Sequence record: NC_005066.1
DNA: 64,000 nucleotides
Reading direction: 5' to 3' (one strand)
Origin: Escherichia phage RB49
Positions 4,487 to 62,969 of the stretch are shown in pieces; the first letter of the stretch is position 1, and each line of letters begins with the position of its first letter. The notes beneath the pieces were generated by a model. It was not told the DNA's origin. It worked only from the letters and a program-made list of their open reading frames with translations, and made no database searches. The position numbers and the translations under genes were made by a program.

Positions 4487-5215
4487 TTACTTGAGTGTGT
4501 GGAATTGGCTATGTTTAGTCTCTCGCACCTTGACAGACCCATCGCGTTTGATATAATAGATCAGTGACTTGAGGGTGTCGTGTACATACGCGTGCGGGAA
4601 ACGCTCTGGATACTTCTTCCAATCTGGAGTATTAACGATCCAGTCGAAAATCCACCACGGGCAGGAGTAGTAACCACGACCGCCACCGATCAAGCAAATG
4701 GTCGGACGGAAGCCAGTAAGATCGCAAAATGAATCAGTGTCATGTGCTGGGGAACGATGTTCTGCTTCGTCAGAGAAAATGTTGGCTACCGGAGATTCCA
4801 CTTTAACTTCCGGTACATCTACAACTTCAATTGTAACTGGTACTGTGTGTGGTTTGGCTTCTTCTACAACTTCAATTGTAATTGGTTCTTCTTTTTGTTC
4901 TGGTTCTTTCATTGCTTCAACCAGAGACGGATCAACTTCGTCGAATACCACTTTATCATCTACGGTGTCTGCTGCCAGAATAAGATCGTTAATACTGGTT
5001 CCTTCTGCCGGAGTTTCTTCTTCCATTTCGGAAGCCAGTTTAGTTAATTCGGTTTCTACGAACTCGATCATGTTCTCTAGTGATAAAGTCTTTTTGACCT
5101 TAATATCAAATTGTTTTGCGTAGTCAGCTAATTCTGTTTTAGCTGTTTTCTGTGCTTCTTTGTCGTCGGACGCCGCAATAGCGCGGAGTTCTTCGAAATA
5201 TTCTTTATCAAACAT
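4487..5215 (-). CDS. inh: Inh-like capsid-associated protein (prohead protease inhibitor homologue, tentative)
   Basis: 242 aa, located between hoc and uvsW as inh is in T4; acidic repetitive N-terminus and a C-terminal PWWIFDWIV motif similar to Hoc WWVFDEIV. Confidence 0.45.
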   Translation of the reverse strand: MFDKEYFEELRAIAASDDKEAQKTAKTELADYAKQFDIKVKKTLSLENMIEFVETELTKLASEMEEETPAEGTSINDLILAADTVDDKVVFDEVDPSLVEAMKEPEQKEEPITIEVVEEAKPHTVPVTIEVVDVPEVKVESPVANIFSDEAEHRSPAHDTDSFCDLTGFRPTICLIGGGRGYYSCPWWIFDWIVNTPDWKKYPERFPHAYVHDTLKSLIYYIKRDGSVKVRETKHSQFHTLK

Positions 5216-5270: not shown

Positions 5271-6788
5271 GTGAGGCTATTCGCTATGCAAGATATTAAA
5301 ATTCACTTTCTGAACTACTCCCATGTTCAAATTGAATGTAGCGATTCAATTTTATTAGAAATGCGAGATTATTTTAGTTTTGAAGTCGAGGGAGCGCGGT
5401 TTCAAAAAAGATTTAAGTATGGTGGATGGGATGGGCGTATTCGTCTTTTAGATTACAACGGAAAGCTGCCAATCGGCCTAACTAAAACCGTGGGAATCTT
5501 CGCTAAAAATATGGGCTATAGCGTATGGGTAGATCCTCGCTTATTCGAAAAAGAACAAGTTACAGAAGAAGAAATTACAAAATGGTGTAATGACTTAGAA
5601 TTATATTCCGGTGCTAACAGGATCACCCCGCACTGGTATCAATCAAAGGCTGTCTTTGAAGGTATTCATCATAAACGCCGTATGTTAGTTTTGCCTACGT
5701 CCGCTGGTAAATCTGCGATTGCTTGTATGTTGTCTCGTTGGTACTTAGAGAACTACGAAGGGAAAGTGCTGATCATCGTTCCTACCACGTCGCTAGTGCT
5801 GCAAATGCGTGATGATTTTGTTGATTATCGCCAGTTTCCGTATGAAGCAATTCATACTATCATGAGCGGTACTAGTAAACACGTAGGTGATCGCCTGATC
5901 GTTGTTAGTACGTGGCAATCAGCATGTAAACAGCCGAGTGAATGGTTCCAGCAATTTGGGATGGTTATTGTTGATGAATGTCACAAGGCCACTGCTAAAA
6001 ACCTGCTAAACATCGTTACTGATATGGATCATTGCCAGTTTAAGATCGGTATGACTGGTTCCCCTCGTGACGGGAAAGCTAACATGATGCAGTATGTCGG
6101 TCTTTTCGGTGATATTTCTAAGATCGTGAGTATTGACCGCCTGATGGAAGAAGGTCAAGTGACGAAACTGAAAATCAACTGTCTTTTCCTTCGTTATACC
6201 GATGAGGAATGTAGCGCGGTTAAGGGTAGAGAATATGCGGAAGAGATCAAGTATATTACGTCTAACCCACGACGTAATAAGTTTGCTTGTAATTTGGCGC
6301 TAAAACTCGCTAAGAAGGGCGAAAACGTATTCCTGATGTTCCGCAATACTAAGCACGGAAAACTTATGTATGATGCGTTACAGAAGGTACACGACAAGGT
6401 TTATTATATTGACGGTGGAGTTAAGACAGAAGAACGTGATGAATTTAAGAAATTAGCGGAAGGGGAAACAGGGATCATTTGCGTTGCATCCTATGGTGTG
6501 TTCTCTACTGGTGTTTCAATTAAGAACTTGCACCATGTTATTTTCGGTCATCCAGTGAAGGAATCAACTATCGTTCGTCAGAGTATCGGTCGTGCATTGC
6601 GTAAACATGGTTCTAAGGATATTGCAACGGTCTGGGATCTTATAGATCATCTGGCGGTGAAGACAAAGAGCAAGAATGCTAAGAAACAGTTTAGCCACCT
6701 TAATTATGCTCTTAAACATGCCCTTGAAAGAATAAAAATTTACAACACCGATCGATTCGAATATGTCACGAAAACCATCGAGATTTAA
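5271..6788 (+). CDS. uvsW: UvsW DNA helicase (SF2, RNA-DNA and branched-DNA helicase)
   Basis: 505 aa; strongly resembles T4 UvsW as recalled (HWYQ, LPTSAGKS Walker A, VDECH DEAD-like box, VASYGVFSTG). Confidence 0.9.
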   Translation: MRLFAMQDIKIHFLNYSHVQIECSDSILLEMRDYFSFEVEGARFQKRFKYGGWDGRIRLLDYNGKLPIGLTKTVGIFAKNMGYSVWVDPRLFEKEQVTEEEITKWCNDLELYSGANRITPHWYQSKAVFEGIHHKRRMLVLPTSAGKSAIACMLSRWYLENYEGKVLIIVPTTSLVLQMRDDFVDYRQFPYEAIHTIMSGTSKHVGDRLIVVSTWQSACKQPSEWFQQFGMVIVDECHKATAKNLLNIVTDMDHCQFKIGMTGSPRDGKANMMQYVGLFGDISKIVSIDRLMEEGQVTKLKINCLFLRYTDEECSAVKGREYAEEIKYITSNPRRNKFACNLALKLAKKGENVFLMFRNTKHGKLMYDALQKVHDKVYYIDGGVKTEERDEFKKLAEGETGIICVASYGVFSTGVSIKNLHHVIFGHPVKESTIVRQSIGRALRKHGSKDIATVWDLIDHLAVKTKSKNAKKQFSHLNYALKHALERIKIYNTDRFEYVTKTIEI

Positions 6789-16390: not shown

Positions 16391-18442
16391 TTACATTTTA
16401 AATTTATCTGGCATTGCGTCTACAGATACCAGATCAGCGATAAGCTGACGTAGAGTTGCCTTATCTGCTTTCTTACGTTCGGTTTTAGCTTCGCTAATGA
16501 AGCTGGAGAAAGACAGGTCAGAAGCAGGTTTAACAACACCTTCACGGATGAATGCATCACCGTCCGCGATCATCTCGCCAGATTCTTGTAATGCTGCCAG
16601 TTCATTTTTGTTCATAATATGTGCCTCAATGTAATAAGTTTCTTGTGAATCCGTCGATGCCGTAGCACGAGTTACCGTATCAAAGGATAACACAACACCG
16701 CGAGGAAGTAAAATCTCGCATTCTTTGTAAGCAAATGCTTTGTTACCTACTGGCAAGACAGGGATGTTTTCCGCGCCAGCAATGGAGAAAGCAACATTGG
16801 CGCCACCTTCACCGCGAGAGCCAGCCATAGAATCAACACCAGCAACGGCACTAGCCACGTTTGCATTCCAGCCGCCAAAAATGTTAGGTGCAAGGGAAGT
16901 GCTCACATAGTTTTTAAAGTAAAACGCTTTTTGCTTACGTGCAGTTTCCCACATTTGCGACCGGAAGTCCATACCACGATACAGAATAGTACCCGGATCA
17001 AGTTTAACGCCATAGTTGGAGAAGGCATTATCCAGTGCATCGCACATCTTGACCAATTCTTCTGGATCTGATATGCCTTCAAACTCTTCCAGCTTGCGGT
17101 CGGTTAGGAAGTTGTTCATATTGATGTATGCTGCATCGGCATATTCGCTCAACACAAAACCTTCCGCGCCTGGCAGATCAAGATCAATATCTGCCATCAT
17201 TTCACCCATGTTGCTAGCAATTGCTTCAAACATACCGGAAGCAACATTACGTAGGGCATCGGTTTTAATCTGGGTGATATGACTACGCAGCATTTCAGCT
17301 TTTACATCTGCTGGCATAGACTGGTCTACTCGATCCATTGCCAGGGCGGTGATCTTGTTTTCGAATACTTCCTCGCTCATGATTTCTTTTAAGCGTTTGA
17401 CCGAGGCTGCGATAACTTCCGCAGACAACGGATCATATTGATCCTGAACTTTTACCAGTTCGCTTACTGCGTATTTTGCATCGGCTTCGCTTTCAAAAAT
17501 AGTACGCATGAAACCATAGCGAGTGATAATATCACTTGTCCAGTCATTCAGAGAACGGGCGGTTGAACGTTCTAAGGCTTGACGGTCAATCAGAGTATTA
17601 AACTGTTTCTTAGGTTCGGCTTCGGTGATATCTTCTTCCGGTTTAAGATTAATTTTTTCTGGATGATTCACATAGTCGCTGTTATAGGTCGCTTGAGTTT
17701 TCAGCATTTCTTCTTTAGTCAAACGAGATTTAGCCGCTACGCGTTGTTCTGCTTCCGCGTTTCGTTCTTCTTCTGACACAAGACTAGCCGCATACGCTTC
17801 ATCTTTAGTCAGAGATTCACCAGTAGCCTTAGATACCCAGCGATCACCTAAATCACTTTCTACTTTAGTGAACAAGGATTCATCAAGTTTAATCCCTTTA
17901 ATCTTATCAATCGCCATCCCGCGACGCTTGACAACAACTAAAGCGATCTTTTTGCTGGTCATTACTTCCTGCTGGAATACTTCAAACTTCGGTGTACGAC
18001 GCACCAAACGCTCTATAACGCGCTTAACCAGTTCGGTCTTACCTTTCATGCGGGATACGTTAAAACGGAACATAACAGCGTCTAATTGCGATTTACGGGC
18101 TGTTTCCATAACCACATCAAAAGCACTTGCCATGACTGCAATCGGGTTATCGCCTAGACCATTTTTAAGCTGTACAATACGACCGCTTTTGTTCATTTCG
18201 CACAGTACAACATGTGCGGTCTTGTCACCCATACGAATGATTTTAGGTGTTTTGTTGGTGAAGTTACAAAGACGGACAATCACATCTTTATCGCGTGTCT
18301 GTACTGCAAAAAGCTGTTTAGGATTCTGCTTAGGCTTTAAGCACTGTACCGGAGCAATACTGCCAAAGTTTTCTTCCTCTTCCGTCAACAGCCATTTCTC
18401 GAAAGATTCAATCATTAGATCGTCGATTTCTAAGTTAAACAT
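16391..18442 (-). CDS. alt: Alt ADP-ribosyltransferase (packaged, modifies host RNA polymerase)
   Basis: 683 aa (T4 Alt is about the same); C-terminal ART motifs LYRG, YVSTS, ECEILLPRG. Confidence 0.8.
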   Translation of the reverse strand: MFNLEIDDLMIESFEKWLLTEEEENFGSIAPVQCLKPKQNPKQLFAVQTRDKDVIVRLCNFTNKTPKIIRMGDKTAHVVLCEMNKSGRIVQLKNGLGDNPIAVMASAFDVVMETARKSQLDAVMFRFNVSRMKGKTELVKRVIERLVRRTPKFEVFQQEVMTSKKIALVVVKRRGMAIDKIKGIKLDESLFTKVESDLGDRWVSKATGESLTKDEAYAASLVSEEERNAEAEQRVAAKSRLTKEEMLKTQATYNSDYVNHPEKINLKPEEDITEAEPKKQFNTLIDRQALERSTARSLNDWTSDIITRYGFMRTIFESEADAKYAVSELVKVQDQYDPLSAEVIAASVKRLKEIMSEEVFENKITALAMDRVDQSMPADVKAEMLRSHITQIKTDALRNVASGMFEAIASNMGEMMADIDLDLPGAEGFVLSEYADAAYINMNNFLTDRKLEEFEGISDPEELVKMCDALDNAFSNYGVKLDPGTILYRGMDFRSQMWETARKQKAFYFKNYVSTSLAPNIFGGWNANVASAVAGVDSMAGSRGEGGANVAFSIAGAENIPVLPVGNKAFAYKECEILLPRGVVLSFDTVTRATASTDSQETYYIEAHIMNKNELAALQESGEMIADGDAFIREGVVKPASDLSFSSFISEAKTERKKADKATLRQLIADLVSVDAMPDKFKM

Positions 18443-18972: not shown

Positions 18973-19033
18973 GTTTGATTCTCCTTTCGTTTCGGTATGG
19001 GTGCATTATAGGGGATCGGTGACCCCCTGTCAA
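18973..19033 (-). promoter_or_regulatory. Early promoter cassette with palindromic spacer
   Basis: TTGACA, spacer containing GGGGTCACCGATCCCC, TATAAT-like box, conserved leader. Confidence 0.6.
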
Positions 19034-25673: not shown

Positions 25674-25736
25674 TTTTGATTCTCCTATATCTCGTTGGTA
25701 TGTGTGCATTATAGGGGATCACCGATCCCCTGTCAA
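25674..25736 (-). promoter_or_regulatory. Early promoter cassette with palindromic spacer
   Basis: TTGACA-GGGGATCGGTGATCCCC-TATAAT-conserved leader. Confidence 0.6.
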
Positions 25737-26818: not shown

Positions 26819-26881
26819 AATTGATTCTCCTAGTTCGTTTCGGTATGTGTGTAGTATAGGGGATCGGTGATCCCCTGTCAA
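26819..26881 (-). promoter_or_regulatory. Early promoter cassette with palindromic spacer
   Basis: TTGACA-GGGGATCACCGATCCCC-TATACT-ACACACATACCGAAACGAA. Confidence 0.6.
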
Positions 26882-26890
26882 CAACTTTTT

Positions 26891-27220
26891 TTAAAGTTTT
26901 TCCATGATAACGGTCATAATTACATCTTCTGCGCGAGCTGTCAGATTATCAGCGTCAGCATGTGGGCGGTTGGTTGTTACAGAGATAACACCGTTGCGCA
27001 CTGGTTTGATATTGATATCAAGATGATCCGCGAAACGTTCGTGATCCGCGAAACGTTCGCCAGTTACAGAATGAATTTTGGTGTTAAATTCTTTTGCCAG
27101 TGCCTTGCGAACTTCACGAATCAGGATAGCGTTTTTCAGTTGGTTCTCCGCGCTCATGGTCTTCTGGGTGTTCATGGTTCCGTCGAAGTCAATCATTGGC
27201 AGCGTTACGATGTATTTCAT
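26891..27220 (-). CDS. Hypothetical protein, paralogue of 23575..23862, containing an in-frame 18-bp tandem duplication
   Basis: 109 aa; ERFADH-ERFADH encoded by a tandem 18-mer at 27025..27060. Confidence 0.5.
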   Translation of the reverse strand: MKYIVTLPMIDFDGTMNTQKTMSAENQLKNAILIREVRKALAKEFNTKIHSVTGERFADHERFADHLDINIKPVRNGVISVTTNRPHADADNLTARAEDVIMTVIMEKL

Positions 27221-27294
27221 TTTTGATTCTCCGTTTAAGAAAGTGTGTTTCGTTTTGATGTGTGTAGTATAGGGGATACGTGATCCCCTGTCAA
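27221..27294 (-). promoter_or_regulatory. Early promoter cassette
   Basis: TTGACA-GGGGATCACGTATCCCC-TATACT-leader. Confidence 0.55.
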
Positions 27295-62909: not shown

Positions 62910-62969
62910 TTTGATTCTCCTTCGTTGTCTTGATGAGTTTAGTATAGGGGATCGCCGATCCCCTGTCAA
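62910..62969 (-). promoter_or_regulatory. Early promoter cassette with palindromic spacer
   Basis: TTGACA-GGGGATCGGCGATCCCC-TATACT. Confidence 0.6.

Follow-up and report, generated by a model that had tools for sequence, protein, structure and literature searches.

The question raised by ORF210 of Escherichia phage RB49 is whether an 18-nt segment that is present twice in the middle of this gene reflects a genuine mutation of the phage or a flaw of the 2003 reference record, how the second copy came about, and what it means for the encoded protein. The analysis covered a stretch of 64,000 nt of the RB49 genome (NC_005066.1; hereinafter, the window) and the corresponding regions of related phages. 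The two copies of the unit, TGATCCGCGAAACGTTCG on the plus strand, are located at 27024..27041 and 27042..27059 and are identical at 18 of 18 positions, both by direct reading and by script; for the same span, Tandem Repeats Finder reports a period of 18, 2.0 copies, 100% matches and no indels. In the preliminary description, the repeat was placed at 27025..27060, with 17 of 18 positions matching; the repeat is the same but the phase is off by one base, and the lower score results from reading the repeat one base to the right. The match ends sharply on both sides (A versus G before, C versus T after), the microhomology at the junction is 0 nt on either side, and the original and the new copy are indistinguishable.

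Duplications of this size are not a background feature of such DNA. The next-longest perfect tandem duplication within the 64 kb spans 8 nt, and in 30 composition-matched, first-order Markov simulations, the longest tandem duplication was 6–11 nt. The observed 18 nt is far above these simulated maxima, and chance is therefore excluded. Taken together, a chance resemblance of neighboring sequences and an ancient internal repeat of the protein are extremely improbable, given the simulations and the fact that the second copy is missing in every relative.

Both copies lie within the minus-strand open reading frame 26891..27220, which is ORF210 (‘ORFan210'; UniProt Q7Y3J6; phrog_7474). The encoded protein consists of 109 amino acids, including a six-residue insertion, and the sequence upstream of the gene reads as a Shine-Dalgarno motif, GGAGA (27228..27232, minus strand), whose GGAG core is separated from the ATG by 8 nt. 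Read along the coding strand, the unit becomes C GAA CGT TTC GCG GAT CA, and the repeat occupies nucleotides 162–197 of the gene. Because the unit is equivalent to six codons and the junction codon, CA|C, still reads His, ORF210 gains exactly one ERFADH hexapeptide, directly after Gly54, in the context ...HSVTG-ERFADH-ERFADH-LDINI...; copy 2 on the plus strand encodes the first hexapeptide (amino acids 55–60) and copy 1 the second one (amino acids 61–66). The preliminary description was thus accurate in presenting the repeat as an in-frame tandem duplication within a coding sequence, with an ERFADH-ERFADH product (G-ERFADH-ERFADH-L in the translation). An antisense open reading frame, 26867..27226, was considered as the actual gene and rejected because all the genes neighboring ORF210 are encoded on the minus strand and, of the 15 codons that vary among the relatives, 10 differ at the third position in the minus-strand frame.

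The AlphaFold single-sequence models of the two ORF210 alleles are weak (pLDDT 59.5 and 61.5) and show, with this low confidence, the same predicted topology, namely, a strand, a long helix (residues 24–53), a linker, a beta-hairpin and a C-terminal helix. The insertion falls into the low-confidence linker, where the predicted long helix ends, and is most likely tolerated or of no fitness effect. In-frame tandem duplications engineered in T4 lysozyme, reportedly by the Matthews laboratory, are similar in that a short helical or linker segment is duplicated and a small protein extends or loops out the extra residues. The lysozyme work is, however, experimental and involves a known structure, whereas for ORF210, the fold is a low-confidence prediction (pLDDT about 60) and the tolerance is presumed.

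Comparison with related isolates, the check proposed in the preliminary description, reveals an exact 18-nt insertion in RB49. The 42 other Krischvirus records that contain ORF210 are all single-copy and align over exactly 312 nt with the 330-nt RB49 query, so that the protein is 103 amino acids long in all relatives. Alignments with JSE, Phi1, OZ035808, FL37 and GEC-3S each contain one exact 18-nt gap and nothing further at this site. The 18-mer is unchanged in 16 ORF210 alleles, the single-copy alleles are 97–100% identical, and the allele shared by JSE and Sf20 differs from that of RB49, the insertion aside, by a single synonymous base. OZ035808.1, which is labeled ‘Krischvirus RB49', was considered as a second RB49 sequence and rejected, the label being species-level only; the stretch that spans ORF210 in this record is 95.7% identical to the window, counting gaps, and the next stretch is 98.3% identical.

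The picture is the same in larger collections. The 109-residue protein was not found among about 15 billion proteins by exact look-up, including two alternative starts, and the 31-nt duplication junction was not found in IMG/VR or in JGI metagenome contigs. The otherwise identical 103-residue protein is indexed in 78 collection blocks, including those from pig-gut metagenomes. Given that 42 of the 42 relatives are single-copy, that the 18-mer is invariant and that neither the two-copy form nor the junction was found elsewhere in these searches, the duplication is, as judged by sequence comparison, derived, recent and unique to RB49. The recent origin, already suggested in the preliminary description, follows from the identity of the two copies and from the single synonymous base that otherwise separates the gene from the JSE allele. 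The other suggestion, that the site is polymorphic in length, holds only to the extent that the RB49 gene is longer than all 42 others; none of those 42 varies, so that the ORF210 repeat represents one private event rather than a hot spot.

This invariance bears on the possibility that the repeat is functional, that is, a length-variable repeat of the contingency type or an adaptive insertion that alters the activity or the target of ORF210. Simple-sequence contingency loci are similar to the ORF210 site in that a coding repeat is able to change length but differ from it with respect to the number of copies (only two in ORF210), the long, complex unit, and the lack of variation among the relatives; copy-number variation, a hallmark of contingency or phase-variable repeats, is not observed, all relatives having one copy. 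In T4-type phages, ORFans expressed early often act in host takeover or in countering host defences, and this general knowledge, along with the in-frame character of the insertion, is compatible with a function. So are signs of some purifying selection suggested by codon comparison in a biased sample of ORF210 alleles, where nine codons vary synonymously only, compared with six that include replacements. Nevertheless, with a copy number that is constant in 42 other genomes and about 78 collection blocks, and with a gene that is dispensable (see below) and has no relative in Pfam, NCBIfam, PADLOC, PDB or BFVD, a functional repeat is highly unlikely.

In Pfam, nothing scores above the threshold for ORF210; HAD_SAK_2 (PF18143) reaches 14 bits compared with the gathering score of 27.5 (E = 0.064). 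The protein contains a DFDGT motif at amino acids 11–15 but is only 103 amino acids long, with a low-confidence model of about three strands and two helices, whereas HAD phosphatases are characterized by four catalytic motifs carried by a five-stranded Rossmann-like core. Assignment of ORF210 to HAD phosphatases on the basis of this motif was dropped as unsupported because the profile score is below the threshold and there is no HAD match in the PDB profile search or in NCBIfam, nor any HAD fold among the Foldseek matches. In PHROGs, ORF210 belongs to phrog_7474, a family of unknown function; NCBIfam and PADLOC give no match; the PDB profile search yields nothing beyond a resemblance of 20 residues to ribosomal protein L29 (E = 0.14); and Foldseek comparison against PDB and BFVD recovers no match except for RB49's own entry. 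Relatives of ORF210 outside Krischvirus were not detected by a word-indexed search or by scanning 1.84 billion representatives exhaustively with HMMER; these searches retrieved only the ORF210 cluster itself and one additional protein, which was rejected as a spurious relative, a translated satellite.

In its genomic setting, ORF210 is the ORFan210 of an earlier study, flanked in RB49 and phi1 by PeSLs (promoter-early stem-loops) (Arbiol et al. 2010, PMC2839356); PeSL ORFan cassettes are also the subject of Comeau et al. 2014 (PMC4122927). The upstream PeSL (27264..27294, minus strand), in the ORF211/210 intergenic region, consists of a −35 box TTGACA, a 17-nt spacer with the stem-loop GGGGATCACGTATCCCC and a −10 box TATACT, and is the early promoter of ORF210. 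The downstream PeSL (26851..26881, minus strand), between ORF210 and ORF209, combines the attenuator of ORF210 with the promoter of ORF209. Both are near-consensus sigma-70 promoters (11 of 12 matches) with a G/C stem-loop as the spacer, and together they bound an excisable ORF210 cassette of 413 nt in RB49. The complete motif, that is, TTGACA, the GGGGATC...GATCCCC stem-loop and TATACT, occurs five times in the window, compared with 0 occurrences expected by chance, with the remaining copies at 19003..19033, 25706..25736 and 62939..62969, all on the minus strand. All five belong to the early promoter/attenuator cassettes already known from RB49-like phages.

Recombination between PeSLs excises ORFan210 from RB49 and phi1 in the form of mini-circles of approximately 400 bp, both monomers and dimers, and the stem-loop has been reported as the crossover zone of the RB49 mini-circles (Arbiol et al. 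2010, PMC2839356). The phage Whisky (MZ504878.1, 300..420) lacks exactly the ORF210 cassette, with the junction, GTAGTATAGGGGA|TACGTGATCCCC, located inside the PeSL stem-loop; this loss is a natural counterpart of the mini-circle excision described in that study. GoldenSnicker, as judged by coverage, lacks the cassette too, and altogether, ORF210 is missing from 15 of the 57 records of the genus. The absence from these records and the clean excision at the PeSLs in Whisky show that ORF210 is dispensable, and the insertion into a dispensable, PeSL-flanked ORFan is probably neutral or nearly so. The RB49 locus thus shares with the published cassettes the identity of the gene, the two PeSLs and the presence/absence polymorphism; PeSL recombination, however, accounts for gain and loss of the whole cassette, whereas the change in RB49 is an 18-nt duplication inside the ORF.

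Upstream of ORF210 are ORF211 (AAQ15440.1; 27308..27652, minus strand), a small membrane-protein ORFan, and, beyond it, ORF212 (AAQ15441.1). ORF211 has been described as homologous to an ORF from an integron (Arbiol et al. 2010, PMC2839356). It also shows a weak PADLOC match to Drt1b (E = 8.7e-4, 17.5 bits), which is probably due to similarity between transmembrane segments.

The two-copy allele is known from one RB49 record (AY343333), sequenced once, and accordingly, the possibility, named in the preliminary description as one that would refute the observation, has to be considered that the second copy arose as an error in the 2003 reference and does not exist in the phage. Such an artefact could have emerged via two routes: a toxic ORFan behind the very strong PeSL promoter would survive shotgun cloning in E. 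coli only if damaged, so that a lesion is selected in the clone, or else, during finishing, two segments from PCR or primer walking were joined end to end, rather than overlapped, at an 18-nt primer site. The history of the record is compatible with such an artefact. The RB49 genome was assembled from a plasmid Sanger shotgun with PCR gap closure, and the regions with novel ORFs were poorly represented in the plasmid libraries, being recovered only via that closure (Nolan et al. 2006); furthermore, cloned PeSLs are nearly always mutated, their expression being deleterious (Arbiol et al. 2010, PMC2839356). The unit itself is primer-like, 18 nt long with 10 of the 18 bases G+C in a genome of about 40% G+C, and the two-copy allele occurs only once among 43 genomes and the metagenome and assembly collections searched. 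The mini-circles of RB49 and phi1 are said to differ by ‘only a few SNPs', with the indel unmentioned (PMC2839356), but this statement is ambiguous because the inverse primers sat in the middle of ORF210, where the duplication is.

Several observations run against an artefact. A clean, perfect, in-frame duplication of 18 nt is atypical of Sanger or assembler errors, and there are no frameshifts elsewhere in the window when it is compared with Sf20, the nearest relative (about 97.6% identity): the single-base indels in homopolymer runs are all intergenic, the other small indels occur in divergent stretches as pairs that compensate each other, and the indels in coding regions are multiples of three. 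This clean pattern indicates that the RB49 assembly is not error-ridden. The authors who re-examined RB49 and phi1 corrected annotations, flagged no sequence error at this locus and gave 93% amino acid identity between the ORFan210 proteins of the two phages (Arbiol et al. 2010, PMC2839356). That figure fits 102 of 109 residues (93.6%) only when the gap of six residues is included, whereas single-copy alleles are 97–100% identical; hence, the published RB49 record already contained the 109-residue form.

Sister phages carry perfect tandem duplications of their own. In the Shigella phage Sf20 (MF327006.1), a 74-bp unit is perfectly duplicated in tandem at 17626..17774, within the gene for an alt-like ADP-ribosyltransferase. 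This duplication shifts the frame, so that the annotated Alt is shortened to 589 amino acids and stands beside an unannotated gap; the site corresponds to a position near 16808 of the window, where the RB49 homolog (16391..18442) is an intact ORF of 683 amino acids. In the Escherichia phage vB_EcoM_G2494 (MK327935.1), a perfect 16-bp duplication of TCCACCCTTAAGCGAA at 5802..5834 frameshifts ORF211, the gene adjoining ORF210, and reduces the product from 114 to 86 amino acids; by homology, the site is at about 27385 of the window. Thus, three private perfect duplications, in RB49, G2494 and Sf20, were detected in the approximately 250 kb surveyed. Because G2494 and Sf20 harbor such duplications, perfect tandem duplication is a common mutation class in Krischvirus, and because the latter two genomes are modern, Illumina-era assemblies obtained without cloning, no artefact is needed to account for the one in RB49. 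On balance, the duplication is probably a genuine and recent mutation, private to the RB49 lineage or to the laboratory stock, and an artefact of the 2003 reference appears somewhat unlikely. The units of RB49 and G2494 each include a 6-bp palindrome, AACGTT and CTTAAG, respectively, which may be a coincidence.

If the mutation is genuine, the next issue is the mechanism. The copies in RB49 are adjacent, head to tail and identical, and the sister alleles are single-copy and collinear, which is the pattern of a short tandem duplication. Spontaneous duplications of this kind are familiar in T4-type phages, from the classical insertions in the T4 rII and lysozyme genes, and are attributed to misalignment during replication or to template switching. 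The RB49 case is similar in being an exact head-to-tail copy of a short segment, derived with respect to the sisters, in a phage whose replication is highly recombinogenic. The classical slippage model, however, expects short direct repeats at the duplication ends, whereas the microhomology is 0 nt in RB49 and 1 nt each in G2494 and Sf20, the level of random break points. The data therefore do not point to slippage between short direct repeats, and the lack of microhomology in RB49 weakens simple slippage as the mechanism but leaves the duplication itself untouched.

The slippage event proposed in the preliminary description is thus not supported: the ends of the duplication show no microhomology, and the unit holds just a weak 5-bp hairpin (z about −1.4). 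This quasi-palindrome, GCGAAACGTTCGC (27048..27060), predicted by folding to form a 5-bp stem with a 3-nt loop, has its 3' end at the right end of the duplication; in the single-copy allele, the hairpin has an energy of −4.6 kcal/mol and z = −1.36, which is not significant compared with shuffled sequences. A hairpin-driven origin was rejected given that shuffled sequences fold with a stability not significantly below that of the actual DNA, and stimulation of template switching by the hairpin is only possible. The sequence of events would be as follows. During replication or recombination of the phage DNA, 18 nt in the middle of ORF210 would have been copied twice, head to tail, most likely by a homology-independent template switch or by misalignment in the recombination-dependent replication of the T4 type, perhaps with the assistance of the GCGAAACGTTCGC hairpin. 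The resulting insertion, presumably neutral or nearly so, would then have been fixed through drift or bottlenecks.

A different origin of a real duplication has to be considered in view of the excision of ORF210 as monomeric and dimeric mini-circles and the similar 16-bp duplication in ORF211 of G2494. Under this scenario, the duplication would be a by-product of error-prone copying or recombination of ORF210 mini-circles followed by re-integration; alternatively, the added ERFADH would alter an early protein directed at the host. There is little chance that this is the case but, should the mini-circle origin be true, PeSL cassettes would be hot spots for ORFan innovation.

The duplication is, then, an ordinary strain-private, in-frame mutation in a known mobile ORFan cassette, or a flaw of the record. 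Taken alone, it carries little weight, being private to one strain, in frame and located in a dispensable ORFan of a reference publicly available since 2003. In practice, it matters for the use of the reference protein. Q7Y3J6 is six amino acids longer than every relative, and BFVD models this 109-residue form, which is 100% identical to the protein encoded in the window, so that the length should be verified before this form is adopted as the representative of the family. Together with the duplications in G2494 and Sf20, the RB49 case shows that microhomology-free, perfect duplications repeatedly give rise to indels and inactivate genes in the hyperplastic regions of Krischvirus.

Several other features of the window and of its relatives emerged along the way. 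ORFan192 (RB49ORF192c, AAQ15421.1; 21423..21899, minus strand) is specific to RB49, whose genome is 164,018 bp in size, and forms a singleton protein cluster, the protein being 158 amino acids long. Exact matches of the proteins of ORF192, ORF211 and ORF212 to RB49 entries, along with Q7Y3J6, identify the window as the RB49 reference genome. It is missing from Sf20 and phi1, no record matches it at a coverage of at least 80%, and the exact protein is present only in three short metagenome or run assemblies (SRR25010989, ERR477281 and SRR21143631). The Logan contigs with ORF192 are 1.2–2.3 kb long, are 98.2–99.6% identical to the window and stop short of ORF210.

An imperfect repeat of two 45-bp copies with 80% identity is located at 4818..4908 of the window, in the gene for a hoc-like head outer capsid protein, and the hoc-like region shows several in-frame indels in comparison with Sf20. 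Judging by this alignment, and in contrast to the ORF210 site, this looks like a coding repeat that truly varies in length.

Krischvirus ORF210, ORF211 and HNH proteins have also been deposited under the name of Bacillus atrophaeus (LWS67_20665, LWS67_20950), on contigs of 3.7–6.5 kb. These entries almost certainly result from coliphage contamination of a bacterial assembly.
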